Shown: positions 16,328 to 37,931 of the stretch, piece by piece | Layout: each line of letters begins with the position of its first letter | How positions within the stretch are numbered: the stretch's first letter is position 1 | NCBI GenBank assembly: GCA_902490145.1 | Contig: CABUCT010000001.1 | Coordinates: 1 to 42,765 of the forward strand | Source: an uncultured Oscillospiraceae bacterium | GTDB taxonomy: Bacteria; Bacillota; Clostridia; Oscillospirales; Acutalibacteraceae | Reading direction: 5' to 3' | Length of the DNA: 42,765 nucleotides | Notes under the pieces: model-generated | Database searches by the model: none | What the model was told of the DNA's origin: nothing | The model's input: only the letters and a program-made list of their open reading frames with translations | Position numbers and translations under genes: made by a program

Positions 16328-17587
16328 TTACCGTTCGACCGAAACCGCTGCAAAATCGTCCTGTTCACGATAAAGCACCGTAGATACAAAATATCTTATA
16401 TCATCCATTGCGTGGTCATTTTCTTTTATGGGTTTGTCTTTTACACTGCCGCTGTCCCATCTGTAAAGTCCGAATTCCCGGATGGTATCAGCACATTTTT
16501 TAGAAATCACAATTCTATTCTCTCTGAGTGCATCTGCAACAAGACGAATACCGTCTGCCACATTGTTTTTTGCAGGAATGACCTTGAACCGTGCGTGGCG
16601 TCGTATACAGGTTATAAAAGAAGCAGCTGAAGGGTCACAAATTACCGAAATAATGTTTCGTGTTCCTGCAAGTGATTCAAGTGCGTCATAATATTCCTCG
16701 TCTGTTTTTTGAACTCCGTGTTTTCTGGAGGAATAATAGTATTCATCAATTCGGTATGCTATTTTGCCTTTTATTCCCCAAAGGCCCATTGAGGTCGGGT
16801 TCACCGTCCCGTAATCGCAGGAGATATAATATTCGTCATATCCGCAAGTTTCCAGAACTTCTGTATGCTTTTCTTCCGAAAAACCCTGATAGACAAGTCC
16901 TTCCGCAGCCACCCATTTTCCTAAAATGAACCGTTCATAAAAAGCCCCTGTGTAAAGACTTTGATAACGCCTGCGTATCTCAGGGGAAAGGGAGGGATTG
17001 TCGTCCATTGTAAAATGAAGATAAAGGGCATTTTTCTCATCTGTTTGTTTTATCCAAGTAGTGTAAAACCAGTGATGAGGATGTTCAGGATTGCAGTTAA
17101 ACCAAAATTTTGATCCATTAACCGAACATCTTGCCAGCGTTTGCTCCACAAAAGAACGAGGCATAAGAGCTACTTCATCAAGAAGTGCTCCCGAAAGGGT
17201 CATACCCTGAATAAGTGCCGCTGAAGATTCGTCTCTTCCTCCGAAAAAATAAAAGCGGTTAGTGTTTGTCCCCCGCCGTACTTCAAGATAATTTTTGGAA
17301 TGTTTGATGTTACATTCAAATCCGATCTCTCTGAGTTCAGCTGACAGGGGCAAAATAATGTTCCTTTTGAGTGCAGTCACGGTTTTTCCGCAGATCGCAA
17401 AATCCGAATTGTTAAATTGCCAAAAAGCCCATAAAACGAAAGAAACCGACATACAAAGGGTTTTTCCGGATCTCACCGCACCGTCACATATAACGGCATC
17501 GCAGTCCTTGTACTTGCTGTTATTGCACCACCATGTTAAAACAGCGAGCTGCTTTTTTGAAAAAGGTGCATATTTCATATGTCGCAC
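16328..17587 (-). CDS. Phage terminase large subunit
   Basis: 419-aa ORF with Walker A (DGAVRSGKT), Walker B-like LLDE, and a C-terminal nuclease-like region. It overlaps terS by 13 nt. Confidence 0.9.
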   Translation of the reverse strand: MRHMKYAPFSKKQLAVLTWWCNNSKYKDCDAVICDGAVRSGKTLCMSVSFVLWAFWQFNNSDFAICGKTVTALKRNIILPLSAELREIGFECNIKHSKNYLEVRRGTNTNRFYFFGGRDESSAALIQGMTLSGALLDEVALMPRSFVEQTLARCSVNGSKFWFNCNPEHPHHWFYTTWIKQTDEKNALYLHFTMDDNPSLSPEIRRRYQSLYTGAFYERFILGKWVAAEGLVYQGFSEEKHTEVLETCGYDEYYISCDYGTVNPTSMGLWGIKGKIAYRIDEYYYSSRKHGVQKTDEEYYDALESLAGTRNIISVICDPSAASFITCIRRHARFKVIPAKNNVADGIRLVADALRENRIVISKKCADTIREFGLYRWDSGSVKDKPIKENDHAMDDIRYFVSTVLYREQDDFAAVSVER

Positions 17588-18063
17588 TCTGTGCCGTTCA
17601 AAGCATCTGCTCCTTTAATAATTGCATCATAAAACGATTGAACAGGAGCGTCTTCTTGATTGGACGAAATTTCAGACAGCTTTTCCAAAGCCTTTACCCT
17701 GTCAAAAAATTTTATTTCCATTCCGCCGCCTTTTGGTCTTTTGATCTCAGATATGCTGAAAAGATCAAGCGTTTCAAGCTGTTCATCGGTGATATCTTCG
17801 GCAAAAAGAAGCTTCACCGCATCGGTCACAGAACCAAATGCAACTCTTTTGAGTCCACTTGCCGCATCCACTGACGACAGTTCCATTTTACTTTTCAGCC
17901 TTTTTATTTCCGAAACAGCGGCTTCTTTCTGCAAAATTTTAAGTCCGGCTCTTTCGGGGAATATACGAAATCCGGCACGTGACGCTGCTTCCCTGAGATT
18001 ATTTGTAAGGGCGAAATCGGCACAAAATTGTTTTTCTTTGGGTGTTAATTTATAATCTTTCAT
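17575..18063 (-). CDS. Phage terminase small subunit
   Basis: 162-aa ORF. The N-terminal HTH block LTPKEKQFCADFALTNNLREAASRAGF is typical of Terminase_2-type TerS. Confidence 0.85.
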   Translation of the reverse strand: MKDYKLTPKEKQFCADFALTNNLREAASRAGFRIFPERAGLKILQKEAAVSEIKRLKSKMELSSVDAASGLKRVAFGSVTDAVKLLFAEDITDEQLETLDLFSISEIKRPKGGGMEIKFFDRVKALEKLSEISSNQEDAPVQSFYDAIIKGADALNGTECDI

Positions 18064-22072: not shown

Positions 22073-22109
22073 AACAGCGAGTAAAATCTTTGTCTTAGCT
22101 GAAAATAAT

Positions 22110-22147
22110 AAAAAGGTGTGACTCAGGTTTAGAGCCACACCTTTTTA
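22110..22147. terminator. Bidirectional rho-independent terminator ending the fum-mdh-hdr-flx-frd-transporter cluster
   Basis: AAAAGGTGTGACTC / GAGCCACACCTTTT stem with one mismatch, flanked by A-rich and T-rich tracts. It lies 70 nt past the transporter stop. Confidence 0.7.
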
Positions 22148-22215: not shown

Positions 22216-23433
22216 TCAAACTACCATTCCGAATATCTTTGAAGCGACAACAATAAAAACAAGTGCAATCGGATATGTTGCAGCATAAGCTGATGCAACG
22301 TCGTCCGTGCCGGCCACCGATATAAGTGTACCCAGTGCCGGTGTACTTGTCATACCACCGGTGATAGATCCGAGATTGTTGAAAATGCTGAGCTTGAAAA
22401 CATATTTTGCGATTATGAATCCGATAACCATCGGAAGTGTGGTCATTATGATTCCATATACAAAATAGGATGGCTTAAAGTTGTTGACAAAGTTAACTCC
22501 TCCGGGAACTCCTGCTCCGATAAGGAAGAGCATAAGTCCAAGCTCTCGGAAAACGTTGAGTGTGTTTTTGTTTATTCTCATATCAATCGAACCGAAGTGA
22601 CCGAAGTGACCGACAATAAGACCCATAATAAGCGTTCCGCCGGATGATCCGAGCGAGAAATTAATTCCTGGGATTTTGATACTTCCGAGAACTATTCCGA
22701 GTGCTACAGTAGCCATAAATGGGAAAAATCCAAGCGAATCAAGCTGAATTCTTTTGCCCTTTGATTCAGGGATTGTAACACTATTTGCGGCTTCAAACTG
22801 TTCACGCTCTTTTTTTATATCGACCTTAAGAAGTCGGGGAATTATCTGAACAAAAAGAACAACACCAAGCACGCCGAAGATATAAGCAATGCCATACCCC
22901 GCTGTTACAAGACTTTCACCATCGGTACCCGCAAATACTTCTTTTGCCGAAGAAAGTCCAGGGGTGCTTGTGAGTGCACCGGTCAAAAGTCCGATTGCCA
23001 TGGCGGGTTCAACACCTAAAGCAACTGTAATTGACATTACTACAAATCCGATAGTGATTATGATAGCTCCAAGAGCCAAATAAGAAACGCTTTTCTTGTT
23101 AAAGCTGCGGAAAAACTTCGGTCCGGCAATAAGTCCGACCGCTGTGACGAACAACGCAGTTCCTATATTAGAAACTAAACCAAAACTTGATTTCAAGCTG
23201 TCGTTCCAAAATGTTATGGTTGTGTCTCCAATTTGGATAGCGTTAACATAGTGTGCAAATATACCAAATACAAGAGCCATGAGCAGTACTCCGGCAGTTC
23301 CAAGTGAAATACCTTTTACTTTAATGCCGCCCAAAAGATAGCCGACCATAGCAATAATAAAAATAAAAAACAAAGTTGTGAGCAGGCTGTGCATAACAGA
23401 ACCTATATATACCATTTTTCTGTTTCTCCTCAA
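22216..23433 (-). CDS. AAE-family (duplicated Asp-Al_Ex domain, YidE/YbjL-like) transporter without the central TrkA_C domains
   Basis: 405-aa polytopic ORF with a visible internal duplication: LGGIKVKGISLGTAGVLLMALVFG versus LGSIKIPGINFSLGSSGGTLIMGLIVG. The ORF opens with TTG at 23433. The ATG at 23415 with SD GAGGAG is the more likely start. Confidence 0.8.
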   Translation of the reverse strand: MRRNRKMVYIGSVMHSLLTTLFFIFIIAMVGYLLGGIKVKGISLGTAGVLLMALVFGIFAHYVNAIQIGDTTITFWNDSLKSSFGLVSNIGTALFVTAVGLIAGPKFFRSFNKKSVSYLALGAIIITIGFVVMSITVALGVEPAMAIGLLTGALTSTPGLSSAKEVFAGTDGESLVTAGYGIAYIFGVLGVVLFVQIIPRLLKVDIKKEREQFEAANSVTIPESKGKRIQLDSLGFFPFMATVALGIVLGSIKIPGINFSLGSSGGTLIMGLIVGHFGHFGSIDMRINKNTLNVFRELGLMLFLIGAGVPGGVNFVNNFKPSYFVYGIIMTTLPMVIGFIIAKYVFKLSIFNNLGSITGGMTSTPALGTLISVAGTDDVASAYAATYPIALVFIVVASKIFGMVV

Positions 23434-23436
23434 AAC

Positions 23437-23460
23437 GGCGGGCGGTAAGATCCGCCCACC
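23437..23460 (-). terminator. GC-rich hairpin between frdA-like and the transporter (possible partial terminator or attenuator)
   Basis: On the minus strand, GGTGGGCGG-ATCTTA-CCGCCCGCC is followed by GTTTT and then the transporter SD. There is one mismatch and only a short T-run. Confidence 0.35.
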
Positions 23461-23470
23461 GGTATAATAA

Positions 23471-25063
23471 TTATTTTCTTGCGTAGTTCGGAAGAAGCTT
23501 CGGTGATTTCACATCTGATTTAATACCGGCATCACTAAGCTCTTTCTCAAAACGTTCAACATGGTCAAGGGTGAGTTTTCCGACTTTTACACTCTTTGCT
23601 TTTTCAGAAGCGTTTTTACCCGCATTGCGGCCGAAAACGATAATATCAAGCAATGAATTTCCCATAAGACGGTTACGTCCGTGGATTCCTCCTACAGCCT
23701 CACCGGCAACAAAGAGGTTTTCAACACCGCTCTGACCATTGTCTGAAATATCGATACCACCGTTTTGGTAATGAAGTGTCGGATAAACAAGAATAGGCTC
23801 TTTGCGGATATCGATGCCATATTTACCGAACATTCTCATCATTGCAGGGATGCGTTTTTCAATAGTACCCTCTCCGTTTTTAAGCTCGATCATAGGAGTA
23901 TCAAGCCATACGGCTTTTCCTTGAGGAGTTTCGACGCCATTTTTACGGTCTGAACATTCGCGGATTATAGAAGCTGCCGAAACATCGCGGGTCTCAAGCG
24001 GATGCATAAATACTTCACCATTTACGTTGACCAATTTTGCACCGAGAGAACGAACCTTTTCGGTAACGAGAGCACCGAAAATCTGTTCAGGGAAAGCAGC
24101 TCCGGTGGGATGATATTGAAGTGTATCAGCATAAAGGAGCTTTGCACCAACGCGATAAGCCAGTACCAAGCCATCAGCCGTTGCACCGTAATGATTAGAA
24201 GTCGGGAATCCCTGATAGTGCAGACGTCCCGCACCACCGGTTGCGATGATAACGGTCTTTGCCTTCGCCACAAGAATCTCTCCGGTTTCCATGTTCATGA
24301 GAACAGCACCGGAAGCCTTGCCGTTTTCATCAAGAATAATTTCGATAGCAGCGGTGAAATCAACCACAGGAATCTCACGGTTAAGAACTTCATCGCGAAG
24401 CGTTCTCATGATTTCGGCACCTGAATAGTCCTTTGCAGCATGCATACGTTTTCTTGAAGTTCCGCCGCCGTGGGTGGTAATCATAGTTCCGTCTGGAGCT
24501 TTATCAAATTCAACACCCAAATTGTTGAGCCATTGAATCGCTTCAGGAGCCTCGTTTACCAATTTGTAAAGAAGTTCCGGCTTTGCAGCAAAATGTCCGC
24601 CGCCGAAAGCATCAAGATAATGCTGTGCAGGGCTGTCGTTTGGCTTGTCTGCAGCCTGGATTCCACCCTCAGCCATCATGGTGTTTGCGTCACCGATACG
24701 AAGCTTTGTAACAATCATTACTTTTGCTCCGTTGTTATCGGCCTCAATAGCAGCAGAAGAACCTGCACCGCCGCCACCGATGATAAGAACATCAACATCA
24801 TAATCAGGATTTTCAAGATCAATGTCTTTGTCAATAACACGACTATGACCCTGAAGCAAAGCGGCAAGCTCTGTCGGAACTTTTTCACCCTTGTTGGGAC
24901 CGACTGTGAGAGTTGCAAATTCCTCCTTTTTATAGTCGGGATGATATGTAGCAAGGAGGGTTTCTTTTTCCTCAGCGGTCATTCTTCTCGGTTCAAACTC
25001 AGCGTTCTTTACGCGTGCATCTTCAACCTTTTTTATGGATTTTTGTAATTCACTTGGATACAT
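23471..25063 (-). CDS. Soluble fumarate reductase/succinate dehydrogenase-family flavoprotein (FrdA/TfrA-like)
   Basis: 530-aa ORF with an FAD fold (DVLIIGGGGAGSSAA), an HPTG active-site block (LQYHPTG) followed by LVTE..R. The covalent-FAD His position reads Asn (DANTMMAEGG versus RSHTVAAEGG). SD AAGGAGG. Confidence 0.8.
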   Translation of the reverse strand: MYPSELQKSIKKVEDARVKNAEFEPRRMTAEEKETLLATYHPDYKKEEFATLTVGPNKGEKVPTELAALLQGHSRVIDKDIDLENPDYDVDVLIIGGGGAGSSAAIEADNNGAKVMIVTKLRIGDANTMMAEGGIQAADKPNDSPAQHYLDAFGGGHFAAKPELLYKLVNEAPEAIQWLNNLGVEFDKAPDGTMITTHGGGTSRKRMHAAKDYSGAEIMRTLRDEVLNREIPVVDFTAAIEIILDENGKASGAVLMNMETGEILVAKAKTVIIATGGAGRLHYQGFPTSNHYGATADGLVLAYRVGAKLLYADTLQYHPTGAAFPEQIFGALVTEKVRSLGAKLVNVNGEVFMHPLETRDVSAASIIRECSDRKNGVETPQGKAVWLDTPMIELKNGEGTIEKRIPAMMRMFGKYGIDIRKEPILVYPTLHYQNGGIDISDNGQSGVENLFVAGEAVGGIHGRNRLMGNSLLDIIVFGRNAGKNASEKAKSVKVGKLTLDHVERFEKELSDAGIKSDVKSPKLLPNYARK

Positions 25064-25075
25064 AAAACAACCTCC

Positions 25076-25753
25076 TTATTTCTCGATCTCTCTGGTATTA
25101 TAGAGTTCTTTCATTTCTTCAATAGGTTTCTGCATAAGGTCCTCGAGAAGCTCCTTGAAATCGCCGTTTTTGATTTCTTTCACTCTGTTTTCAAGATGCT
25201 CTGTTTTGGGAGCAAGATATTTACCATTAAGTCTGCGGGCAAGCATTGCCACCTGCGGATGAGAAATACCTGCGGGGCAGCGTGAAGAACAAACACCGCA
25301 CATTACGCAGTCAAAGGATTCCTCAGCACATTTTTCGTATTCACCTCTCTGAGCATAGGCGATATACTGCATAACATTGAGTCCCTGAGTACAGCTCTTT
25401 GTGCAGGCATTGCAGCCGATACAGCTGTAAATTTCGGGATAAAGCTGCATCATAATCTGCTCGCTTGGGGAAATCTTTTCAATATCATAAACCTGTTTAA
25501 TAAGCGGGAAAAAGGGGAGTGTTGCAACATACATATTGTCCTCAACTTGTGTTGAGCAGGCGAGACAAACCTTGAGTTCGCGATCACCCTTTATGCGATA
25601 TATAGTGGCACAGGCTCCGCAAAAGCCGTTACGGCATCCGCAGCCTCTCACCAGCTGATATCCGGCATATTCCATAGCACCCATGATAGTCAGGCTTGAC
25701 GGGACTTCGTATTTTTTGCCCATCAGAAATACATTTACCATTTTCTGTTCCAT
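25076..25753 (-). CDS. FrdB/SdhB-like iron-sulfur subunit
   Basis: 225-aa ORF. It has an N-terminal 2Fe-2S pattern (CGCRNGFCGAC...C). Two further cluster motifs follow: CIGCNACTKSC and CVMCGVCSSRCP. Confidence 0.8.
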   Translation of the reverse strand: MEQKMVNVFLMGKKYEVPSSLTIMGAMEYAGYQLVRGCGCRNGFCGACATIYRIKGDRELKVCLACSTQVEDNMYVATLPFFPLIKQVYDIEKISPSEQIMMQLYPEIYSCIGCNACTKSCTQGLNVMQYIAYAQRGEYEKCAEESFDCVMCGVCSSRCPAGISHPQVAMLARRLNGKYLAPKTEHLENRVKEIKNGDFKELLEDLMQKPIEEMKELYNTREIEK

Positions 25754-25768
25754 ATTTCAAAACCTCTC

Positions 25769-26599
25769 TTAATATTCATCTGGCATCTCGTCGATTTGGT
25801 CACAGCGGAAGACCGGACCGTCTTTGCAAACGTATTTAGAGCCGATGTTGCAGCGGCCGCATTTGCCGACACCGCATTTCATTTTGAGTTCCATTGTGGT
25901 GAAAACCTGAGTTTTGTCAAACCCGAGTTCCATAAGACCTGCAAGGGTAAACTTAATCATAATAGGCGGACCGCATATGATAACGGTTTTGTTTGTGTCA
26001 AAGCCAAGTTCCTTGACATAGTTCGGAACAAAACCGACGTGTCCGTCCCAGCCTTCCTGTTCACGGTCAATGGTGAGATGAACATTTATGCCGTCCTCGT
26101 TGCTCCATTCACTTATGATTTCATCATAATCCACAAGGTCATCCTTACTTCTTGAACCATAAACAATGTCAACAGTGCCATAGTTTTCACGGTTATCACG
26201 GACATAATTAATAACCGAACGAAGCGGAGCAAGACCGATGCCGCCGGCAACAAAGAGCAGATCTTTGCCCTTAAATGCAGTATCAACAGGGAAGCCGTTT
26301 CCATAAGGTCCGCGAATGGTGATTTGCTGCCCAACATCCATTTGGTGAAGCCATTCGGTAAGACATCCGCATTTTTTGATGCTGAATTCCATAAACTCAG
26401 TGTTTGTGGGAGATGAAGTAATTGAGAACATAGCCTCTCCGACACCCGGAATAGAGAGCATAGCACATTGACCGGGAATATGCTCAAAACATTTTCCTCC
26501 GTCAAGGGAATTGACGCGGAAGGTTTTTACATCGGGAGTGTCGATGCGAACATCTGTAACAACACCGATGTGCGGAATAAGAGTTTCGTTAACAGACAT
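25769..26599 (-). CDS. FAD/NAD(P)H-binding oxidoreductase with a C-terminal 2Fe-2S (FlxA / HydG / AsrB / PyrK-like)
   Basis: 276-aa ORF with the nucleotide-binding block LLFVAGGIGLAPLRS. The C-terminal motif is CGVGKCGRCNIG...CKDGPVF. Confidence 0.8.
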   Translation of the reverse strand: MSVNETLIPHIGVVTDVRIDTPDVKTFRVNSLDGGKCFEHIPGQCAMLSIPGVGEAMFSITSSPTNTEFMEFSIKKCGCLTEWLHQMDVGQQITIRGPYGNGFPVDTAFKGKDLLFVAGGIGLAPLRSVINYVRDNRENYGTVDIVYGSRSKDDLVDYDEIISEWSNEDGINVHLTIDREQEGWDGHVGFVPNYVKELGFDTNKTVIICGPPIMIKFTLAGLMELGFDKTQVFTTMELKMKCGVGKCGRCNIGSKYVCKDGPVFRCDQIDEMPDEY

Positions 26600-27624
26600 T
26601 ATTTTTTACCCCCTAACTTTTTGATAACCTTTGCAATATTCATAGAAATAGGACACTTTGCAACACATCTTCCGCATCCGACGCAGGAATAAAGTCCTTC
26701 ATTGTTTGCCGGATAGTACACAAGCTTATGCATAAAGCGTTGACGGAAGCGTTCAAGCTGGCTTGTGCGGGGGTTTCCGTGAGCCATTTTGGTAAAGTCG
26801 GAGTACATGCAGGAATCCCAGCAGCGATATCTTTGAACACCGTGACCGGTGTCATAGTCGCGGATATCATAGCACTGGCAAGTCGGACAAACAAATGTGC
26901 AGGTTCCGCATCCGATACATGATTCCGAAAGAGTTGCCCATTCGGGAGAATTGAATTTTTCAAGCATAACTTCTTCGCTGCCAAAGCCTTCAAGCGACAG
27001 ATCGGAGAGAGGAAGCTTTTTCATAATTTCGGAAGTTGCTTTTTTCTGTGTTTCTACAGCAGAATTATCGCAAGCTTCAAACAATCCGGAAATTTTATTT
27101 TCCAAAGCCTTACCCTTTTCGGTTATTGCTTCGAAATAAAGAGCATCATCGGTAATATAGGTTACGGCATCGCCTTTAGGATCGGTTGCATCAATGCCGA
27201 ACACGTTGCAAAAACAGGTTTCTTCAGGAGCTGAACAAGCGAGAGTGACAACAGTGCCTTTTTTGCGGCGGTTTTCATAATATGAATCAACCGGATCACT
27301 GAGGAAAACACGGTCAAGCACGTCAAAACTCTTTGCATCGCAGGCACGAACACCAAAAACTACAAAATCTTTGGTTTCATCGCGGTTGTCAATAACCTCA
27401 ATCTTTTTACCCTCGGTTTTGAAAGCCATAAGATTTTCGCTTTGCGGGAAGAAAAGATCCTTCGGAGAGCGATTTGTATGAAGAATATCAAGGCGAACCT
27501 TTGAATCAGCATCCCATTTGAAGAAATCAACATTTCCGCTCTTTTCAATCGGAAGATAAAGCTCTTCGTCGGCTGCGATTGTTTCAAATAATGAATTTAA
27601 TTTTTCTTTTGAAATTTTAAGCAT
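26599..27624 (-). CDS. Polyferredoxin-type 4Fe-4S protein (FlxB / AsrA / sulfhydrogenase-beta-like)
   Basis: 341-aa ORF with GVRACD, CIGCGTCTFVCPTCQC and CVGCGRCVAKCP. It overlaps each neighbour by 1 nt. Confidence 0.75.
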   Translation of the reverse strand: MLKISKEKLNSLFETIAADEELYLPIEKSGNVDFFKWDADSKVRLDILHTNRSPKDLFFPQSENLMAFKTEGKKIEVIDNRDETKDFVVFGVRACDAKSFDVLDRVFLSDPVDSYYENRRKKGTVVTLACSAPEETCFCNVFGIDATDPKGDAVTYITDDALYFEAITEKGKALENKISGLFEACDNSAVETQKKATSEIMKKLPLSDLSLEGFGSEEVMLEKFNSPEWATLSESCIGCGTCTFVCPTCQCYDIRDYDTGHGVQRYRCWDSCMYSDFTKMAHGNPRTSQLERFRQRFMHKLVYYPANNEGLYSCVGCGRCVAKCPISMNIAKVIKKLGGKK

Positions 27625-28613
27625 TAGTTGTCGCCTCCTTTATCCGAAACCACAGAGGGCTCAACATCATTTTGAGTGAAGCTGGTGAGTGGGGTGCGGA
27701 CTTCGTCATCAGAACCCGCCTGATATTCACCGTAAAAGCTGTCAATATCTTTGATAAATTTGCGATTAAGCAAATGAAGCGGAATGTTTTGAGGGCAAAC
27801 TCTTGAACACTCTCCGCAGTCGGTGCAGCGACCGGCAACATGGAATGCACGGATAATGTGGAAACAATTTTCTTCGAAGCTGTCAACCGGAGCTTTAGAA
27901 GCAATTCCTGATTCAGCATTGTCAAACACACAGTTTGTGCAGGTACAGGCAGGGCATACATTGCGGCAGGCATTGCAGCGAATGCATTTTGAAAGCTCAC
28001 CTCTCCAAAATTCAAAACGCTCGTCCGGAGTCATGGCTTCAAGTTTCTCAACTATTTCAAAGCGATCGGATTTCCATGAATTATCGGGAGTTTCATCTTT
28101 AACTATAAGTTCATCCTGAACAACGTGGGTGCGGCCTTTGCATACACAGCAGCGATCAAGAAGTGCATCTCTGCGGGAAACCTGTTTGTCACCGTAAAGT
28201 GTATGAACAACGAGCGTGTCTCCATCCTCGTCAATAGATGTAATACCTGTAATCCCCATCTTGCGGAGCTTTTCAACGTCAAGCTTTCCACCGCAGTGAA
28301 TGCCGATAGCATAAATTTTTTCGCGGTCAACGCGATGTTCTTTAATCAGCTGATTTAAGCTGTATGTATCGCATGGTTTAAGGAAAACAGCGGTTTTACC
28401 ATCTTTTTTGGACTCTTTTATGAGATATTTACTGAGATTTGCACCGCAAAATCCATTATACACAAAATCATCGAGCTGATCAGCAGAGGTAAACACAGCA
28501 GGTGTGGGATCATAGAAGAACTCTCCGTTTTTCCAACCGACAACACGAGCTACTTCTCCGGAGGACAAAAGCTCTTGAGCCTTTGATTTCATTCGGTCAA
28601 AGATTTCTTGCAT
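27624..28613 (-). CDS. Polyferredoxin-type 4Fe-4S protein (FlxC-like)
   Basis: 329-aa ORF with LKPCD, CIRCNACRNVCPACTC and CTDCGECSRVCP. A good SD (GGAGG, 7-nt spacing) precedes the ATG at 28613. Confidence 0.7.
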   Translation of the reverse strand: MQEIFDRMKSKAQELLSSGEVARVVGWKNGEFFYDPTPAVFTSADQLDDFVYNGFCGANLSKYLIKESKKDGKTAVFLKPCDTYSLNQLIKEHRVDREKIYAIGIHCGGKLDVEKLRKMGITGITSIDEDGDTLVVHTLYGDKQVSRRDALLDRCCVCKGRTHVVQDELIVKDETPDNSWKSDRFEIVEKLEAMTPDERFEFWRGELSKCIRCNACRNVCPACTCTNCVFDNAESGIASKAPVDSFEENCFHIIRAFHVAGRCTDCGECSRVCPQNIPLHLLNRKFIKDIDSFYGEYQAGSDDEVRTPLTSFTQNDVEPSVVSDKGGDN

Positions 28614-29044
28614 CTCAAATCCTCCAATCTCTTATTCGGACCAAGCTCGGTCACAGTTTTTACAAAGTCGTTCATAACTGTAGAAAATCTTGCACCTTCA
28701 GCAGCAGAAACCCATTCAACACGGGTACGTCCCCTCTCGATTCCGAGATAGTCAAGCATACCGAAAAGCAAAGTCATTCTGCGTCTTGCATAATAGTTTC
28801 CGGTTGTATAGTGGCAATCGCCGGGATGGCATCCGCACATGATAACACCGTCTGCACCACGCTGAAAAGCCCTTAAAATGAATATCGGGTTTACACGGCA
28901 GGAGCAAGGCACACGAATTATTTTTACATTTGCGGGATAGTTAAGACGGTTGGTTCCGGCCAGATCCGCCCCTGCATATGAACACCAGTTGCAGCAGAAA
29001 GCAACAATTTTCGGGGTGAATTCTTTGCTGTCATTTATTTGCAT
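28589..29044 (-). CDS. MvhD/FlxD-type protein (methyl-viologen-reducing hydrogenase delta subunit family)
   Basis: 151-aa ORF with the characteristic block VAFCCNWCSYAGADLAG...IRVPCSCRV...GADGVIMCGCHPGDCHY. Confidence 0.9.
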   Translation of the reverse strand: MQINDSKEFTPKIVAFCCNWCSYAGADLAGTNRLNYPANVKIIRVPCSCRVNPIFILRAFQRGADGVIMCGCHPGDCHYTTGNYYARRRMTLLFGMLDYLGIERGRTRVEWVSAAEGARFSTVMNDFVKTVTELGPNKRLEDLRCKKSLTE

Positions 29045-31023
29045 ATTGCATCTACCTCCGCCATAATCTGTTTATTTGAGAATCCCTTAAGGTCCATAGC
29101 TCCTGACGGGCAGGTAACAGTACAAGCACCGCAGCCCTGACATACAGCTTCGTTGACCGAAGCCACTCTTCTTGTTTCGGTTTTGCCACCGCCGAGGCGG
29201 AATTCCTTGTCTATATAAGAAATAGCACCATAGGGACAAACGTTGGCACAAGCCGAGCAGCCGTTACAGGTCATCTCGTTGGAATGAGCAACGCATGGAT
29301 TGCAGGTAAGCTTATCTTTTGAAAGAAGCCCGATAACCTTTGCGGCAGCAGCCGAAGCCTGAGCAACCGTTTCAGGAATATCTTTAGGTCCTTGGCAAAC
29401 GCCCGAAAGGAATACGCCCGCAGTGGGACTTTCGACCGGACGAAGCTTTGGATGAGCCTCTGTAAAGAAATCGTTAGTATCCATGCTGGCAGTAAGCTTT
29501 GTCGCAATCGAGCGGGCGGACTTGTCTGGCTCGATAGCAGCGGCAAGCACAACCATATCGGCTTCAATGTGAAGTTGTTCATTCATTATAAGATCAGAGG
29601 CCTGAACGGTTAGCTTTCCGTCATGTGGAGCAACCTTTCCCACCATGCCTTTTATGTAATGAACACCGTATTCTTCAACTGCACGGCGATAGAACTCGTC
29701 AAAGTTCTTTCCAGGGGTACGAACATCTATATAGAATACATAAACATCTGTGTCCGGATATTTCTCGCGAGTCAGCATTGCGTGTTTTGCAGTATACATG
29801 CAGCAAATCTTTGAGCAATACTCTTTTCCGCAGCCTGATGTATCACGGCTTCCGACACACTGAACGAAAACAATGGTGTGCGGATGGGTTTTGTCGGACG
29901 GACGGAGAAGCGTTCCTCCGGTTGGTCCGGCAGCATTCATAAGACGCTCATATTCAAGAGAAGTTACAACATCGGGACTCTGCGAATAAGCAAATTCGTC
30001 ATAATTATCAAGTTTTATGGGATTAAATCCGGTTGCGGCAACGATAGCACCGTATTTTTGTTCGATAATTTCGTCCTTCTGTTTGTAGTCAATAGCATTT
30101 GCGGTACATACCTTAGAGCAAACCCCGCATTTCCCGGTCTTGAGCATAGTGCAGTAGTCCGGATCAATTCGGGCGACCTTCGGAACTGCCTGAGCAAACG
30201 GGATGTAGATAGCTCTGCGGTTATCAAGTCCGAGATTGAATTCGTTAGGGACTTTTTTCTGAGGACATTTTTCGGTGCAAAGTCCGCATCCGGTACATAC
30301 ATCCTCTTTTACATATCTGGCTTTCTTGCGAATTTTAACACTGAAGTTTCCGACGAATCCGCCGACTTCTTCAATTTCGCTGAAAGAGTAAATTTTTATT
30401 TTTTCATTTTGTGCGGCCTCAACCATTTTCGGAGTCAGAATACAGGCGGCACAGTCAAGAGTCGGGAAGGTTTTGTCGATCTGAGCCATCTTTCCACCGA
30501 TTGTTGGAGACTTCTCAACAATATCGACTTCATAACCTGCGTCGGCAATATCAAGAGCAGTCTGAATACCTGCGATACCACCGCCGATAACCAAAGCTCG
30601 TTTGGTTACAGGGCTTTCTCCTGCGGTGAGGGGAGCATTGAGATGAACCTTTGCAATAGCTGCACGACCAAGAATGATGGCCTTTTCGGTGGCAATCTCC
30701 ATATCCTTATGGATCCATGAACACTGTTCACGGATATTTGCAACCTCGACCATATATGGGTTAAGTCCGACAGATGCGGCAGCTTTTCTGAAAGTTGCTT
30801 CGTGCATACGGGGTGAGCAGGAGCAAATAACTACACCGGTAAGAGAATGTTCCTTAATGGCATTTTTAATAAGATCCTGACCTGCCTGAGAGCACATATA
30901 TTGATAGTCGGCGGAAAAAACAACACCGGGCTCTTTCCCGAGTTCTTCTGCAACTTTTTTAACGTCTACGGTTGCGGCAATGTTGCTTCCGCACCAGCAG
31001 ACAAATACACCTATTCTCTGCAT
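29035..31023 (-). CDS. hdrA: Heterodisulfide reductase subunit A-like flavoprotein
   Basis: 662-aa ORF. It has the N-terminal Cys domain (VFVCWCGSNI...CSCSPRMH) and the FAD fold (VIGGGIAGIQTALDIA...GGKMAQIDKTFPTLDCAAC). An inserted ferredoxin domain (CTGCGLCTEKCP, CGVCSKVC) and a C-terminal one (CNGCSACANVCP, CQGCGACTVTCP) are also present. Confidence 0.9.
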   Translation of the reverse strand: MQRIGVFVCWCGSNIAATVDVKKVAEELGKEPGVVFSADYQYMCSQAGQDLIKNAIKEHSLTGVVICSCSPRMHEATFRKAAASVGLNPYMVEVANIREQCSWIHKDMEIATEKAIILGRAAIAKVHLNAPLTAGESPVTKRALVIGGGIAGIQTALDIADAGYEVDIVEKSPTIGGKMAQIDKTFPTLDCAACILTPKMVEAAQNEKIKIYSFSEIEEVGGFVGNFSVKIRKKARYVKEDVCTGCGLCTEKCPQKKVPNEFNLGLDNRRAIYIPFAQAVPKVARIDPDYCTMLKTGKCGVCSKVCTANAIDYKQKDEIIEQKYGAIVAATGFNPIKLDNYDEFAYSQSPDVVTSLEYERLMNAAGPTGGTLLRPSDKTHPHTIVFVQCVGSRDTSGCGKEYCSKICCMYTAKHAMLTREKYPDTDVYVFYIDVRTPGKNFDEFYRRAVEEYGVHYIKGMVGKVAPHDGKLTVQASDLIMNEQLHIEADMVVLAAAIEPDKSARSIATKLTASMDTNDFFTEAHPKLRPVESPTAGVFLSGVCQGPKDIPETVAQASAAAAKVIGLLSKDKLTCNPCVAHSNEMTCNGCSACANVCPYGAISYIDKEFRLGGGKTETRRVASVNEAVCQGCGACTVTCPSGAMDLKGFSNKQIMAEVDAICK

Positions 31024-31037
31024 TAGCTTTTTCCTCC

Positions 31038-31430
31038 TTACTTACTGTGTTTTCTCATAACGCTGACGATTGCCTGTTGGGGCAGATCATCATTGAGAAG
31101 TGACGGAATGTCATCTTGTTTCATGTGGTTTTGACCCTGCTGGCGAATGACCGAAAGACGGACAGCTTCAACAAACTTTGCAGGTTCAACACCTCTTGGA
31201 CAGCGTTCAACGCAGGCAAGACATGAAAGACACATAAAAAGACTCTTTGAATTCATAAGAGGCTCGATTTTGCCCTGTTCAACCATAGCGACAAACTGAT
31301 GGGGATGATATTCCATCTCGCCGTAAGCAGGACATGTGCCTGAACATTTTCCGCATTTCATACACTTTCTTGGGTTAACACCGGCAATGCGGATTATTTC
31401 CTCAGAGAGGTTAGCGTTTGTATTGCTCAT
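31038..31430 (-). CDS. hdrC: Heterodisulfide reductase subunit C-like 2x[4Fe-4S] protein
   Basis: 130-aa ORF with CMKCGKCSGTCP and CLSCLACVERCP. It overlaps hdrB by 4 nt. Confidence 0.85.
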   Translation of the reverse strand: MSNTNANLSEEIIRIAGVNPRKCMKCGKCSGTCPAYGEMEYHPHQFVAMVEQGKIEPLMNSKSLFMCLSCLACVERCPRGVEPAKFVEAVRLSVIRQQGQNHMKQDDIPSLLNDDLPQQAIVSVMRKHSK

Positions 31431-32218
31431 TTGTCCTCCTCCTTTACGCCGAGAGCTTCGGCGAGAATTTCGGTGAAGTAATAAACCGGCAGTCCGTTTT
31501 GTGCGTTGTGATTAAGGTTGTACATACAAAGCGGACAAGCGGTGATAAGCATTTCTGCTCCTGCACTTTTGGCCGAGTCATTTATATTCGTTACCTTTGC
31601 TTTTGGAAGATCTTCATCCTCCATGGTGATATATCCGCCGCAGCATTCATTGCGATACGGATAAACGACCGGTTCAGCTCCGAGAGCACGAATGAAATCT
31701 TCGATAATAGTCGGATTTTCGGGATTATCAAAGCCGAGCTGTTTTCCTGGACGAAGAAGCAGGCAGCCGTAATAAGCACCGATTTTCTTTCCGGTAAGCG
31801 GATTTTTAACGGCTTCTTTAAGCTTGTCAAATCCGATCTTATCGCGAAGAAGCTCAAGGAAGTGAATGACCTCTGCCTCTCCGTTATACGGATTTTCAAG
31901 AGCAAGGTAATTGTTTGCTTTGAAGTTCATGTTGGCGTCGTTTTTCATGTCATAGTTTGTACGTTTTATAACATGATGACAGGCCGAACACATAGTTACA
32001 AGAGTCTGCCCTTTGTCACGTGCCGCTGCAAGAGCTCTGACAGATGAGAGTTTTGGAGCGATTTCGTCGCTTCCCATAGGATAAACTCCACCGCAGCACT
32101 GCCATTCGGGCAATTCCTCAAGAGTGATACCAAGAGCCTCGGCGGATTTTCTGGCGTATATATCGAGATCCTTGGCTTTGGTTTTGAGTGTACAGCCGGG
32201 ATAATAACTGTATATCAT
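31427..32218 (-). CDS. hdrB: Heterodisulfide reductase subunit B-like protein (two CCG domains)
   Basis: 263-aa ORF with two copies of the C...CCGG...CxxC pattern: YYPGC...QCCGG...CSAC and YYGC...ECCGG...CPLC. Confidence 0.9.
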   Translation of the reverse strand: MIYSYYPGCTLKTKAKDLDIYARKSAEALGITLEELPEWQCCGGVYPMGSDEIAPKLSSVRALAAARDKGQTLVTMCSACHHVIKRTNYDMKNDANMNFKANNYLALENPYNGEAEVIHFLELLRDKIGFDKLKEAVKNPLTGKKIGAYYGCLLLRPGKQLGFDNPENPTIIEDFIRALGAEPVVYPYRNECCGGYITMEDEDLPKAKVTNINDSAKSAGAEMLITACPLCMYNLNHNAQNGLPVYYFTEILAEALGVKEEDK

Positions 32219-32244
32219 AACTCGCTCATTCCTTTCGCAAATTT

Positions 32245-33192
32245 TTATATTTCAAGTCCTTTTATAACCGATTTAAGGTTGTCGGCACTCTTTCTAAGAA
32301 GAGCCATTTCCCCTTGAGTAAGAGGAGTGGGGACTTTGCATTTGATTCCCTGATTATTTACAAGCGACAAGGTGCTCAGGCATACGTCGTCAATACCGTA
32401 TTCGCCGTTCATCATGCTGCTGACCGTGAGAGCGGTATCAACGCTTGAAAAAATGCAGCGGCAGATCATTGCAGTTACGATTGAGACTGCATAGTAAGTA
32501 GCTCCCTTGTTCTCAATGATAGTAGCACCGGAATTTTTAACATATTCCCAAATTTTCTGGCGGTCAATGGGAGGAACAGCAGTTTCCTTGCTGAAGAAAC
32601 AGTCATGATACTGGTTGATGCTGATGCTGGAAATAGTCGAGATAGACCACGGAATGAATGATGTGTCACCGTGCTCACCAAAAACATAAGCATGAACGTT
32701 TTTCTGGCTTACATTATAGTAGTCAGCAAGACTTGTACGCAGACGTGCAGTATCAAGAAGAGTTCCCGAACCGAACACACGGTTCTGCGGAATACCTGAG
32801 ACTTTAGTAAAGACATATGTGAGAATGTCAACAGGGTTTGCAACAATGACATAAATAGCATCAGGAGCATATTTTGTTATCTCCGGTGCAATCTTTTTGA
32901 TTATGTTGGTGTTTACCTGAGACAATTCAAGACGTGACTGACCTGCTTTACGTGCAACTCCTGAGGTGATGATAACGATATCAGCATCTTTGGCATCGGA
33001 ATATGTACCGGAATAAATATTTGTCGGGGAACAATATGCTGTGCCCTGACGGATGTCCATAGCCTCACCGAAAGCCTTTTTTTCATTAATATCGATGAGG
33101 ACGATTTCTGCGGCGGTTCCGTTTACGGTCAAGGTGTATGCAATGGTGGCACCAACATTACCGGTACCGATAATAGCAACTTTGCTGCTCAT
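32245..33192 (-). CDS. L-lactate/malate dehydrogenase family enzyme; Arg at the substrate-specificity position suggests an LDH-like malate dehydrogenase
   Basis: 315-aa ORF with the Rossmann motif IIGTGNVG, the catalytic block GEHGDTS and LDTARLR. The loop GVARKAGQSR aligns with LDH GANQKPGETR, placing Arg where LDH has Gln102. Confidence 0.85.
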   Translation of the reverse strand: MSSKVAIIGTGNVGATIAYTLTVNGTAAEIVLIDINEKKAFGEAMDIRQGTAYCSPTNIYSGTYSDAKDADIVIITSGVARKAGQSRLELSQVNTNIIKKIAPEITKYAPDAIYVIVANPVDILTYVFTKVSGIPQNRVFGSGTLLDTARLRTSLADYYNVSQKNVHAYVFGEHGDTSFIPWSISTISSISINQYHDCFFSKETAVPPIDRQKIWEYVKNSGATIIENKGATYYAVSIVTAMICRCIFSSVDTALTVSSMMNGEYGIDDVCLSTLSLVNNQGIKCKVPTPLTQGEMALLRKSADNLKSVIKGLEI

Positions 33193-33328
33193 ACTTAATC
33201 ATTCCTTACTCTGATTTCTTATTAAGGGAAAATAACACACCGAGATGTTATTTGGAAGCAAATAATCCAATAAATTTAGAAAATTTTATTTCTTTTGGGA
33301 TATCTTGTTGAATACCCCCAAAACGCAC

Positions 33329-33354
33329 GCAAAGGACGGAAGAACCGTCCTTGC
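33329..33354 (-). terminator. Possible weak terminator between the fumarase genes and the dehydrogenase gene
   Basis: On the minus strand, GCAAGGACGG-TTCTT-CCGTCCTTTGC (one bulge) is followed by GTGCGTTTT. Confidence 0.35.
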
Positions 33355-33377
33355 ATTTCAGTTTCCTTTTAAGGAAA

Positions 33378-33986
33378 TTATTTCATATAGTGAACTTTTG
33401 GCTTAAGCTCTGCGGCTTGCTTATCGCGGGCAGAATCAAAATCCTTGCGAACCTGAGTGAACATATTGTTTCCCTGGGTATCAATAGAAACGATCAGCGG
33501 ACCGAATTCTTTAACCCGACATACCCAAAGAGCCTCAGGAACACCGAAATCGAGCCATTCAACATCTTCAACTTCTTCGACCTCCTCGGCGGCCATAACG
33601 GCACATCCGCCGGGGAGAACGCAGTGCAAAGCACCGAATTCTTTACAGGCAGCAGCAGTGTTATCTCCCATGCCGCCTTTACCAATGATAATTTTAACAC
33701 CGGTCTGCTCGATGAAATCAGCCTCAAATGCTTCCATTCTCATGCTGGTGGTCGGGCCTACAGATACCATTGAGTATTTGTCTCCGTCTTTTTTAACAAT
33801 CGGACCCGCGTGGAAAATAGCATTTCCTGCGAATTCAAAATTAGGTTTAATACCCTCATGAACACGTCTTGCGTGGCCGGAGTCACGGCAAGTAGCCATC
33901 ATTCCGGTGAGGTATATCATATCGCCAACACGAAGATCTGCAATATCTTCGGTTTTAATAGGCGTGGTTATGATTCTTTTTTCCAT
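33378..33986 (-). CDS. Class I (Fe-S) hydro-lyase beta subunit: fumarate hydratase or L(+)-tartrate dehydratase beta
   Basis: 202-aa ORF with the Fumerase_C-type block [22 protein letters not shown]. It is paired with the alpha subunit upstream. Confidence 0.85.
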
Positions 33987-34022
33987 ATATAACAGTCCTT
34001 TCGGTCAAATCCAGAATTTATG

Positions 34023-34922
34023 TCAGATTTTTGCACCTTTGTGGGTTATCATCTCGCAGCTGCCGTCTGCCGAAACAGAAAGAGTTCCGCGGCGATGAGC
34101 CCAGCAGCCGGTCTGAACCGACACAGCCAAAGTGGCAGGGTGACGGCAAATGGTTTCAACATTAAGTCCGAGAAGACTTTCGCTTCCGCCGAGACCCTGA
34201 GGTCCGATACCGATTTTATTGATTGAATCAGAGAGAAGCTTTTCAAATTCGGCAACCTTAGGATTCGGGTTATGACTGCCGACTTTTCTGAGAAGAGCTT
34301 TTTTGGAAAGCTTAGTAGCAGTAGAAATACAGCCACTGATACCGACGCCGACAGCGAGAGGAGGACATGCGTTAACACCGCGTCCGGTAACAACGTCAAG
34401 AACAAAGTCAACAACGCCTTCATATCCCTGAGCCGGCATAAGAACTGCCGAACGACCCGGAAGACTGCATCCGCCGCCTGCAAAATAAACGTCCATTTCG
34501 ATTTTATCGGAATCAGGAACAATGTTCCATTCTATGTAAGGAACACCGGTTCCGACGTTTTTGCCGGTATTATACTCGTCGAAGGTTTCAACGGCATTAA
34601 GACGAAGAGGAGTCTGCTGAGTAGCCTGAGCCACAGCCTCATTAATGACTTCGGTGAGAACATTAAGATAAGGACTGAAAGCTCCTGCACGTACATAAAG
34701 ATGAACGATGCCGGTATCCTGGCAGGTTGGTCTCATAATCTCAACTGCTCTTCTTTGATTTCCGATCATGATGTCATAAAGAGTAATAGCACTCTCTTTG
34801 GTTTCTGCTTCTCTCATTTCGAGCAAGCGTGCCATAACATCATCAGGAAGGCGGATAGACGCCATTCCGACAAAGTTGGCAACATGATCAATAAGCTCTT
34901 TTTTCTGCTTCTCGGTGATCAT
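34023..34922 (-). CDS. Class I (Fe-S) hydro-lyase alpha subunit: fumarate hydratase or L(+)-tartrate dehydratase alpha
   Basis: 299-aa ORF with Fumerase-type blocks (CQDTG, GIGPQGLGG, HPATLAVSVQTGCWAHRR). Confidence 0.85.
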   Translation of the reverse strand: MITEKQKKELIDHVANFVGMASIRLPDDVMARLLEMREAETKESAITLYDIMIGNQRRAVEIMRPTCQDTGIVHLYVRAGAFSPYLNVLTEVINEAVAQATQQTPLRLNAVETFDEYNTGKNVGTGVPYIEWNIVPDSDKIEMDVYFAGGGCSLPGRSAVLMPAQGYEGVVDFVLDVVTGRGVNACPPLAVGVGISGCISTATKLSKKALLRKVGSHNPNPKVAEFEKLLSDSINKIGIGPQGLGGSESLLGLNVETICRHPATLAVSVQTGCWAHRRGTLSVSADGSCEMITHKGAKI

Positions 34923-37481: not shown

Positions 37482-37753
37482 GATTTTTTCTGATATGAAG
37501 CATTTTTTACTGTCATGAGTGAAGTTTTGCTAATCGTAACGTCTATTTCATACTTAAAACAGTGTTTGTGAATGTAAGACATCATTTTGTTCTCCATAGA
37601 AGAGATATTCCATTATAACATGAAGTAACTTTTCCAACTGTTAGGCAGAGCTTTATCCTCTGCGGGTGACTTTTATTTAAAGTAGCACTATAATAAGCTT
37701 TTAGACCACACGGAGAAGTTTTATCGATTCATAACACAACATTTTTTCACACT

Positions 37754-37787
37754 AAAGCCGTACGTTTATTTTTACGTTCGGCTTTTT
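37754..37787 (+). terminator. Orphan rho-independent-like terminator in the alaS upstream region
   Basis: AAAGCCGTACGT / ACGTTCGGCTTT stem with one mismatch, followed by TTTTTA. It lies 270 nt after the aminotransferase stop. Confidence 0.45.
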
Positions 37788-37867
37788 ATAGTATACAGTT
37801 GTGAAGTTTCATCATTCTCCTAATAAAAGGACGGAGAATTAGATCCGATGCTTAAACTCTGTTAATC

Positions 37868-37896
37868 TTGACAAAGTAAAGCGGGATTTGTATAAT
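37868..37896 (+). promoter_or_regulatory. Consensus sigma-A promoter of alaS
   Basis: TTGACA (37868-37873), exactly 17 nt, then TATAAT (37891-37896). Confidence 0.7.
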
Positions 37897-37931
37897 AAAC
37901 CATATATGTAAATTTGAATAGAGGTAAAAAT

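Follow-up and report, generated by a model that had tools for sequence, protein, structure and literature searches.

A putative succinate operon joining a soluble fumarate reductase to an Flx-Hdr electron-transfer module in an uncultured gut Clostridium

Contig CABUCT010000001.1 of an uncultured Oscillospiraceae bacterium (assembly GCA_902490145.1) was analyzed over positions 1 to 42,765, a 42.7-kb stretch referred to here as the window. It corresponds to scaffold_703 in ENA record ERZ28634864, an assembly from a human gut metagenome. The minus strand of the window carries thirteen open reading frames (ORFs), from 34922 to 22216, that run in one direction and are tightly packed (Table 1). They encode a two-subunit hydro-lyase, an NAD-dependent dehydrogenase, the seven subunits of an Flx-Hdr electron-transfer module, a predicted soluble fumarate reductase (FrdBA), and a transporter of the AAE family. 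A first-pass annotation, made from the sequence alone, had reported these co-directional ORFs together with a hairpin in a 185-nt gap and a strong closing terminator, and all of them are present, the ORFs at the coordinates that it gave. Profile searches against Pfam and NCBIfam returned the domain families claimed there as well, apart from the naming of the hydro-lyase.

Neighboring genes of the cluster either overlap (1-25 nt) or have 12-55 nt between them, with the 185-nt gap between ttdB and mdh as the single exception. Gaps of 36 nt and 26 nt lie between ttdA and ttdB and between mdh and hdrB, respectively. The seven flx-hdr genes follow contiguously in the order hdrB-hdrC-hdrA-flxD-flxC-flxB-flxA, with overlaps or with gaps of at most 14 nt (hdrB/hdrC, 4-nt overlap; hdrC/hdrA, 14-nt gap; hdrA/mvhD, 10-nt overlap; mvhD/flxC, 25-nt overlap; flxC/flxB and flxB/flxA, 1-nt overlap each). 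Downstream, flxA and frdB are 15 nt apart, frdB and frdA 12 nt, and frdA and the AAE gene 55 nt. The flanking genes are housekeeping genes, namely HtrA and D-Ala-D-Ala carboxypeptidase genes on one side and rpe, an aminotransferase gene, and alaS on the other. This self-contained cluster is a real 13-gene operon. As previously annotated, it contains no gene for the FrdC/D membrane anchor, and no gene for DsrC or an alcohol dehydrogenase lies within or beside it.

Table 1. Coordinates of the operon genes and associated features in the window
Feature	Position	Strand	Evidence
Rex-type operator-like palindrome GTGTTAATTTTTTAACAA	35154-35171		ttdA-rpe intergenic region, 232 nt upstream of the ttdA ATG
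TtdA, L(+)-tartrate dehydratase alpha (predicted)	34023-34922	-	NCBIfam NF006084, 434.6 bits (cut-off 365)
TtdB, L(+)-tartrate dehydratase beta (predicted)	33378-33986	-	NCBIfam NF006082, 314.8 bits (cut-off 264)
Hairpin, GC-rich with short U-run, in the 185-nt ttdB-mdh gap	~33328-33356	-	RNA fold of 33193-33377, z = -3.39
LDH-family NAD-dependent dehydrogenase, predicted malate dehydrogenase	32245-33192	-	Pfam Ldh_1_N and Ldh_1_C; motif GVARKAGQSRLEL
HdrB	31427-32218	-	Pfam CCG x2; full-length match to solved HdrB, E 3e-36
HdrC, 2x[4Fe-4S]	31038-31430	-	Pfam Fer4_8 and Fer4_17; best NCBIfam match HdrC
HdrA, FAD + Fe-S	29035-31023	-	NCBIfam HdrA2, 796.8 bits; 5ODC_A match end to end
MvhD/FlxD	28589-29044	-	Pfam FlpD, 184.5 bits
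FlxC-position Fe-S protein	27624-28613	-	4Fe-4S dicluster, residues 206-277
FlxB, HydB/AsrA-like Fe-S subunit	26599-27624	-	Pfam Fer4_22; NCBIfam ShyB/HydB/AsrA; PDB 9NEZ_B, E 5e-47
FlxA, FAD/NAD(P)H-binding, 2Fe-2S	25769-26599	-	Pfam FAD_binding_6, NAD_binding_1, DHODB_Fe-S_bind; PDB 9NEZ_C, E 6e-57
FrdB/SdhB-like Fe-S subunit, 225 aa	25076-25753	-	2Fe-2S and two CxxCxxCxxxC motifs; no CCG domain
FrdA/TfrA-like flavoprotein	23471-25063	-	Pfam FAD_binding_2, residues 91-471, 234.8 bits
AAE-family transporter, 399 aa	22216-23415	-	Pfam Asp-Al_Ex x2, 209.7 bits
Intrinsic terminator at the operon end	22109-22147	-	16-bp stem, 7-nt loop, T-run; 69 nt past the AAE stop codon

The Flx-Hdr gene set is complete. 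The earlier assignments of HdrB, HdrC, HdrA, MvhD/FlxD, and FlxA are borne out by Pfam, NCBIfam, and comparisons with solved structures. HdrA is the bifurcating subunit in the Hdr of methanogens, and residues 3-659 of the protein encoded here align to residues 5-648 of the solved Methanothermococcus HdrA 5ODC_A (E 1.5e-206). Its flavin adenine dinucleotide (FAD) domain is present and, by Pfam, its Fer4 domains lie at approximately residues 236-309 and 582-645. HdrB keeps all ten CCG cysteines (C9, C41, C42, C77, and C80; C152, C192, C193, C228, and C231). The homologues of FlxA and FlxB in Pyrococcus sulfhydrogenase I are its gamma (9NEZ_C) and beta (9NEZ_B) subunits, respectively, which oxidize NAD(P)H. 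FlxB and FlxC had both been described as AsrA/HydB-like polyferredoxins; this holds for FlxB, but the likeness of FlxC to FlxB is weak and confined to the cluster-binding C-terminus.

The two genes that follow encode an FrdB-like and an FrdA-like protein, as the first-pass annotation had it. The homology of FrdB to SdhB/FrdB is distant: a plain sequence search against the PDB gives weak SdhB matches (E ~1e-4), and a profile-profile comparison is needed. Against E. coli FrdB/SdhB, hhalign returns a probability of 96.3% (E 1.7e-9, 148 columns), with an alignment that extends over the 2Fe-2S site and the two cluster motifs of the C-terminus. The second of these motifs, CxxCxxCxxxCP, predicts that the third cluster is 4Fe-4S rather than 3Fe-4S. 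A natural FrdB-FrdA fusion protein exists (P0122). The flavoprotein keeps the binding and catalytic residues of fumarate reductase, since H318, T320, E335, R338, R359, H431, and R465 correspond to H232, T234, E245, R248, R287, H355, and R390 of E. coli FrdA. All seven are invariant in a family alignment (A1) that reaches down to 39% identity, where the first-pass annotation had named their loss as a result that would overturn its assignment. The protein has the FAD_binding_2 fold with a capping domain, and an AlphaFold2 model of it (predicted local distance difference test score, pLDDT, 89) has E. coli FrdA 1KF6_A as its top Foldseek match (E 3.5e-33, template modeling score 0.68).

In place of the E. 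coli covalent-FAD histidine, His44, the flavoprotein has an asparagine, N127, that is invariant in the family. Soluble fumarate reductases and the L-aspartate oxidase NadB likewise lack this histidine, and its loss favors fumarate reduction over succinate oxidation. The FAD would be bound noncovalently and the active site is predicted to be competent. No C-terminal helical domain (Succ_DH_flav_C) is detected by Pfam, and the alignment to E. coli FrdA stops at residue 421 of 602. The protein falls under every curated NCBIfam cut-off (FrdA, SdhA, TfrA, and NadB), with TfrA as the best of these at 345.9 versus 718 bits. It therefore forms a distinct subfamily closest to TfrA. A 90-residue N-terminal extension (HPDY...GPNKGEKVP), in which G55 and G59 are invariant, is conserved from Clostridia to Gammaproteobacteria. 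The extension is modeled confidently (pLDDT 83-95), and the alignment with E. coli FrdA contains nothing equivalent; this segment might, for example, dock FrdB or stand in for the missing C-terminal domain. Public names for the flavoprotein, "FAD-dependent oxidoreductase" or "L-aspartate oxidase", are misleading.

Such names, the active-site residues that NadB has in common with the flavoprotein, and the failure to reach any curated FrdA, SdhA, or TfrA cut-off would suit an L-aspartate oxidase or a reductase of another enoate. This is extremely unlikely given that the protein comes with an obligate SdhB-like partner, to which it is fused in P0122, that dozens of species show its linkage to mdh and fumC, that neither nadA nor nadC lies nearby, and that the only cultured organism studied with the operon makes succinate. 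The NadB reading was rejected on gene context. A complex of this kind could also run in reverse, with succinate oxidation driven by reduced ferredoxin (confurcation), and Hdr-Flx has been discussed for syntrophic succinate oxidation in one account (PMC5947623). However, a setting with mdh, fumC, and a transporter of the exporter type, in gut fermenters, points to the reductive direction, and the probability of the reverse direction is next to negligible. A succinate-oxidizing role was rejected because the invariant asparagine occupies the position where succinate oxidation needs the covalent-FAD histidine.

The hydro-lyase pair at the head of the operon belongs to the Pfam families Fumerase and Fumerase_C and had been called fumarase alpha and beta. 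This name does not stand. Both subunits pass the NCBIfam cut-offs for L(+)-tartrate dehydratase and fall below those of all fumarase models (fumarate hydratase alpha, 239.6 versus 276 bits; beta, 192.1 versus 269 bits). They are 50% (TtdA) and 60% (TtdB) identical to the experimentally defined E. coli enzyme, and the solved two-subunit fumarase 7XKY scores far lower against the pair (166.8 bits). The pair is predicted to be TtdAB orthologues and not fumarase. TtdA falls in a small divergent clade, its nearest relatives being 86%, 70%, and ~60% identical and the bulk of annotated TtdA proteins 53-55%. In other Clostridia, TtdAB homologues adjoin a CitMHS transporter gene with GntR regulators, or malic enzyme, and these neighborhoods would fit tartrate use.

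Because the pair is a predicted tartrate dehydratase, the operon would lack a malate-to-fumarate step. It would convert tartrate to oxaloacetate, reduce oxaloacetate to malate, and reduce fumarate to succinate; of the route from oxaloacetate (or tartrate) through malate and fumarate to succinate that had been placed at the locus, the other steps would be covered and the conversion of malate to fumarate would be missing. A reading that restores this step takes the TtdAB-like pair as the actual fumarase of the operon, a non-orthologous replacement of FumC, so that the operon works as in its relatives and tartrate is irrelevant. The pair does sit in the hydro-lyase slot, occupied by fumC in nearly all relatives (see below), its clade is small and divergent, and the window contains no fumarase. 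However, in addition to the scores above, L-tartrate (2R,3R) and L-malate (2S) have opposite configurations at the carbinol carbon (textbook chemistry), two related operons (L050 and L074) are also without fumarase, and the clostridial TtdAB homologues stand in tartrate-type contexts. A fumarase activity of the pair is, in our estimation, unlikely.

The dehydrogenase of the LDH fold carries the arginine typical of malate dehydrogenase (MDH), as noted in the first-pass annotation. This residue, Arg102 in GVARKAGQSRLEL, is glutamine in lactate dehydrogenase (LDH), and the same arginine is found in 50 of 50 operon-linked homologues. By NCBIfam the protein misses the MDH cut-off (271.1 versus 283 bits) and passes that of L-LDH (352.5 versus 339 bits), so that its family name would be L-LDH. 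Family and residue evidence disagree here, and a malate dehydrogenase is favored by the residue and by the gene context. The last gene encodes the AAE transporter that had been annotated, with its two Asp-Al_Ex repeats. Its start is better placed at 23415, as in the source record, than at the TTG at 23433. The protein misses the AspT and YidE equivalog cut-offs and has no Pfam family besides Asp-Al_Ex. It is predicted to be a dicarboxylate carrier, either a succinate exporter or a tartrate:succinate exchanger.

The conservation of the operon was surveyed with one genome per species. At least 590 relatives were matched, and the best 80 are 76-85% identical. Almost all of these 80 are metagenome-assembled genomes (MAGs) of gut or rumen Clostridia, and the cultured Yeguia hominis is included; Solibaculum, Phocea, and [Clostridium] leptum turn up in the protein search. 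Synteny counts are limited to loci whose contigs extend far enough. The nine core genes, hdrB-hdrC-hdrA-mvhD-flxC-flxB-flxA-frdB-frdA, keep their order in 58 of 58 loci, which answers the question of frdAB/flx-hdr synteny across Clostridia that the first-pass annotation had raised. The at least 58 species-level genomes with this core come from Clostridia of the human, mouse, chicken, and ruminant gut. A class II fumarase gene, fumC, lies directly upstream of hdrB in 54 of 56 loci (the Y. hominis protein is above the cut-off of NCBIfam TIGR00979), mdh lies upstream of fumC in 41 of 53, and an AAE transporter gene follows frdA in 47 of 69.

Departures from this arrangement occur at the upstream end. 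At L050 and L074 the operon begins at hdrB, without mdh or fumC; both genes are therefore dispensable in the operon, and supply of these enzymes in trans has precedent. The genes upstream of hdrB at these two loci (positions 1-2860 of L050 and 1-2845 of L074) are unrelated: GGDEF and GDSL lipase genes, and a semialdehyde dehydrogenase gene on the opposite strand. A sister species, with an FrdA of 91% identity, has the same 13 genes in the order ttdA-ttdB-mdh-hdrB and no fumC. Its transporter gene is followed by a MatE gene and then by a complete rnfCDGEAB cluster (L084-L087, 13313-20178), where the window has the HtrA and carboxypeptidase genes. At L010, mdh is directly upstream of hdrB; the contig begins inside mdh, and ttdAB is out of view. 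In the window, the hairpin of the ttdB-mdh gap is followed by a promoter-like site (33311-33283). The hairpin is possibly a partial terminator that divides the added ttdAB genes from an ancestral operon start at mdh.

More distant relatives of FrdBA are wired differently. A 57%-identical relative (P0121; L097, 811-9771) lies in the cluster korDABG-hdrA-mvhD-hdrC-hdrB-frdB-frdA, and a 47%-identical relative in a gammaproteobacterial MAG (L088, 9366-12891) in the cluster frdB-frdA-nuoF-like. Other settings include the FrdB-FrdA fusion (L098, 5250-7433) and an isolated frdA-frdB pair (L099, 10001-12357) with a cluster mate labeled Prochlorococcus sp. MIT 1201. Thus, FrdBA appears to be a portable soluble fumarate-reductase cassette that is fixed to Flx-Hdr in Clostridia.

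The operon may be controlled by Rex. The palindrome upstream of ttdA, GTGTTAATTTTTTAACAA, is the only match in the window at no more than one mismatch to the clostridial Rex operator consensus TTGTKAANNNNTTMACAA, with 0.09 matches expected. On the operon strand, a weak promoter-like site immediately precedes it. At up to three mismatches the pattern occurs at chance level (17 matches versus 14.8 expected), and only the site with at most one mismatch is informative. In the relatives, Rex-like boxes are ~29-fold denser within 200 nt upstream of mdh/fumC than elsewhere; 4 of the 17 upstream matches overlap the mdh start codon and were discounted. A rex gene adjoins or follows the operon in several relatives and is identified by NCBIfam in Y. 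hominis. The operator suggests that this NADH-consuming operon would be de-repressed when NADH rises. An Rfam search gave nothing relevant at the gathering threshold over the whole window, nor at E<=1 on the leaders of the operon and alaS, and no tRNA.

The cluster is probably a "succinate operon" from a Clostridium of the human gut (Oscillospirales/Ruminococcaceae type), in which a quinone-independent FrdBA is fed by NADH through Flx-Hdr with electron bifurcation. Its core would be a cytoplasmic fumarate reductase taking NADH electrons through Flx-Hdr. NADH would be oxidized at FlxA, with its FAD and 2Fe-2S cluster, and FlxB, FlxC, and FlxD would carry the electrons on to the HdrA flavin, where the pair would be split. 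One electron would go uphill to ferredoxin via the ferredoxin-like domains of HdrA. The other would go downhill through HdrC, the two noncubane clusters of HdrB, FrdB, and the noncovalent FAD of FrdA to fumarate. The net reaction would be 2 NADH + Fd(ox) + fumarate -> 2 NAD+ + Fd(red) + succinate. Rnf, encoded beside the operon of the sister species, or a hydrogenase could then draw on the reduced ferredoxin, giving an ion gradient without quinones. Mdh, with its Arg102, would reduce oxaloacetate to malate, the AAE protein would move the dicarboxylate, and the Rex operator would allow induction as NADH accumulates. In this lineage the fumC of the usual operon would have been replaced by ttdAB upstream of mdh; L-tartrate could therefore enter as oxaloacetate, and the fumarase step would come from elsewhere in the genome. 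By our own arithmetic, a redox-balanced tartrate fermentation would run as 3 tartrate -> succinate + 2 acetate + 4 CO2.

The energetics would permit such coupling. The fumarate/succinate couple has a standard potential of approximately +30 mV and the NAD+/NADH couple one of approximately -320 mV, compared with -400 to -500 mV for ferredoxin (see also PMC5861303), so that the coupled reaction with 2 NADH would be clearly exergonic. Reduction of fumarate and ferredoxin with NADH by flavin-based bifurcation is plausible. FrdBA could instead be a plain NADH:fumarate oxidoreductase in which Flx-Hdr serves as an electron relay and no ferredoxin is reduced. Simple soluble NADH-dependent enzymes do exist, such as the five-subunit enzyme of Hydrogenobacter thermophilus (PMC13147460), and the gammaproteobacterial relative pairs frdBA with a NuoF-like NADH-binding protein only. 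However, seven extra subunits are strictly conserved with frdBA in all 58 loci, including a full-length HdrA with both ferredoxin-like domains, and such conservation is hard to explain where a three-subunit enzyme suffices. Additionally, Rnf is adjacent in the sister species, and uncoupled transfer from NADH to fumarate would waste ~350 mV. An uncoupled enzyme is, on these grounds, rather improbable.

The bifurcating scheme also assumes that HdrB hands its electrons directly to FrdB. Alternatively, there could be two enzymes joined by a soluble thiol/disulfide carrier, with Flx-Hdr reducing the disulfide and FrdBA oxidizing the thiol. This would account for the ten CCG cysteines kept in HdrB and for TfrA being the best NCBIfam family of the flavoprotein. 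However, FrdB does not have a CCG domain, which is the thiol-oxidizing part of TfrB, HdrB is the one CCG protein at the locus, and the cluster contains no DsrC-like or other carrier gene. Direct wiring of Flx-Hdr to FrdBA is the simpler reading because FrdB is without the TfrB-type thiol-oxidizing domain and no carrier gene is present. Some room is left for a thiol/disulfide intermediate between HdrB and FrdBA, and a carrier-linked pair of enzymes is very unlikely.

Several observations weigh against a direct, bifurcating NADH-to-fumarate complex encoded as a complete pathway at this locus. The ferredoxin coupling, the contacts between subunits, and the electron path from HdrB to FrdB are purely inferential. 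The disulfide-reducing site in HdrB is intact. FrdBA also occurs with a NuoF-like partner or alone, and therefore Flx-Hdr as such is not needed by FrdBA. By tblastn, neither a fumarase gene nor rex is found anywhere in the window. The Rex match is a single site, and a match of equal quality appears somewhere in the window in 8 of 100 shuffles. Finally, no purified, assayed, or structurally solved Flx-Hdr-fumarate reductase was found in the literature.

The finding at this locus is real and was well read in the first-pass annotation apart from the fumarase call; it belongs to a known kind of system that is biochemically uncharacterized, and the question of fumarate-driven bifurcation has been under discussion since 2019. 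The statement that no enzyme of this composition has been characterized agrees with the literature, in which none was found. The novelty that it implied does not hold, since the gene set and the bifurcation idea are published (PMC7282089, PMC6315080, PMC11636981, PMC13147460). In Pseudoclostridium (Hungateiclostridium) thermosuccinogenes, a co-regulated "succinate operon" comprises a gene for fumarate hydratase, seven for Flx-Hdr, two for fumarate reductase, and one for a putative transporter (PMC7282089). A coupling between fumarate and ferredoxin reduction had already been put forward by the authors in a 2019 preprint (Koendjbiharie and van Kranenburg), which PMC7282089 cites. That operon shares with the one described here the seven flx-hdr and two frd genes, a putative succinate transporter, the number and order of the core genes, and the proposal that NADH reduces fumarate and ferredoxin. 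It differs in having a fumarate hydratase gene where ttdAB and mdh are found here; homology was judged from the published description. In a CRISPR (clustered regularly interspaced short palindromic repeats) interference study of P. thermosuccinogenes, the reductase is not among the targets.

In Candidatus Endoriftia persephone and Thioflavicoccus mobilis, tfrAB is interleaved with flxABCD-hdrABC and korABCD, and bifurcation to fumarate and ferredoxin was proposed; the Endoriftia tfrAB-flx-hdr genes were later shown to be co-expressed (PMC6315080, PMC11636981). An FrdBA-type module likewise stands beside Hdr-Flx in these bacteria, an arrangement matched by the kor-hdr-frd cluster of P0121. However, they use the reductive tricarboxylic acid cycle autotrophically, their 2-oxoglutarate:ferredoxin oxidoreductase genes are interleaved, the gene order is different, and mdh, ttdAB, and the AAE gene are missing. 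In a 2026 review and survey the complex is still a suggestion (PMC13147460). Nothing usable was found in the literature on succinate phenotypes of isolates that carry the operon or on Ruminococcus flavefaciens with Hdr.

Other systems share parts of this design. In Desulfovibrio vulgaris, according to PMC7282089, FlxABCD-HdrABC (Ramos et al., 2015) is tied to the oxidation of ethanol, and its acceptor is presumed to be DsrC. The same seven families are contiguous there, whereas in the operon described here DsrC and adh genes are missing and the module has FrdBA as its fixed partner. The methanogen MvhAGD-HdrABC complex (5ODC) contains full-length homologues of HdrA, HdrB, HdrC, and MvhD and provides the template for the bifurcation chemistry. 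Its donor is H2 via Mvh and its acceptor is CoM-S-S-CoB; here the donor would be NADH via FlxABC and the proposed acceptor fumarate via FrdBA. Methanothermobacter TfrAB, which includes the best curated family match of the flavoprotein (TfrA), also unites fumarate reductase chemistry with CCG clusters. TfrB is a fusion of an FrdB-like part and a CCG part, whereas here FrdB has no CCG part and a separate HdrB carries it. The H. thermophilus enzyme (Miura, 2008) is soluble, quinone independent, and NADH linked, and has an FrdA/FrdB core with input subunits; its accessory subunits are different, and as presented in PMC13147460 no HdrA or Flx is reported and bifurcation is not proposed. The E. coli and Salmonella proteins TtdAB-TtdT, Mdh, FumB, and FrdABCD include orthologues of TtdAB and convert tartrate through oxaloacetate, malate, and fumarate to succinate (PMC11237755, gut context). 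They rely on a membrane menaquinol:fumarate reductase and TtdT, in contrast to the soluble FrdBA-Flx-Hdr and AAE transporter in one operon.

What is new here is modest: the wide spread of the module in gut and rumen Clostridia under uninformative names, the exchange of fumC for ttdAB that points to L-tartrate, and the link to Rex and Rnf. The module is not confined to one thermophile but is present in at least 58 species-level gut genomes. If the coupling is real, it explains succinate formation and energy gain from fumarate reduction in quinone-poor Clostridia, and fumarate joins the short list of high-potential acceptors in HdrA-type bifurcation. Succinate is a key metabolite for cross-feeding and signaling in the gut. 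The ttdAB variant hints at a commensal rival for L-tartrate, which Salmonella uses for fumarate respiration in the inflamed gut. More tentatively, the core may be a new class of bifurcating enzyme in which HdrB noncubane clusters deliver electrons to an SdhB-like protein, serving hundreds of gut and rumen Clostridia as the main, hitherto unrecognized quinone-free route to succinate and as Rnf-based fumarate respiration, and re-plumbed here with ttdAB for dietary or inflammation-derived L-tartrate.

Other parts of the window contain features unrelated to the operon. A 432-nt noncoding stretch upstream of alaS (37482-37913) has no Rfam match at E<=1 and no T-box or known leader. On the minus strand at 5804-7468, plsX continues in frame, with no stop codon, into rnc (RNase III N-terminus MKTLEERIGY...). 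The result is a single ORF of 554 aa that combines FA_synthesis, RNase III, and dsRBD domains, and no recorded gene has exactly this product. The minus strand from approximately 11859 to 18063 is occupied by a compact phage-like head module, which consists of small and large terminase genes, unannotated 388- and 340-aa ORFs, a gene for a Phage_capsid_4 protein, and three small ORFs. The module, with no integrase, tail, or lysis genes in view, may be a prophage remnant or an element resembling a satellite or a gene transfer agent.

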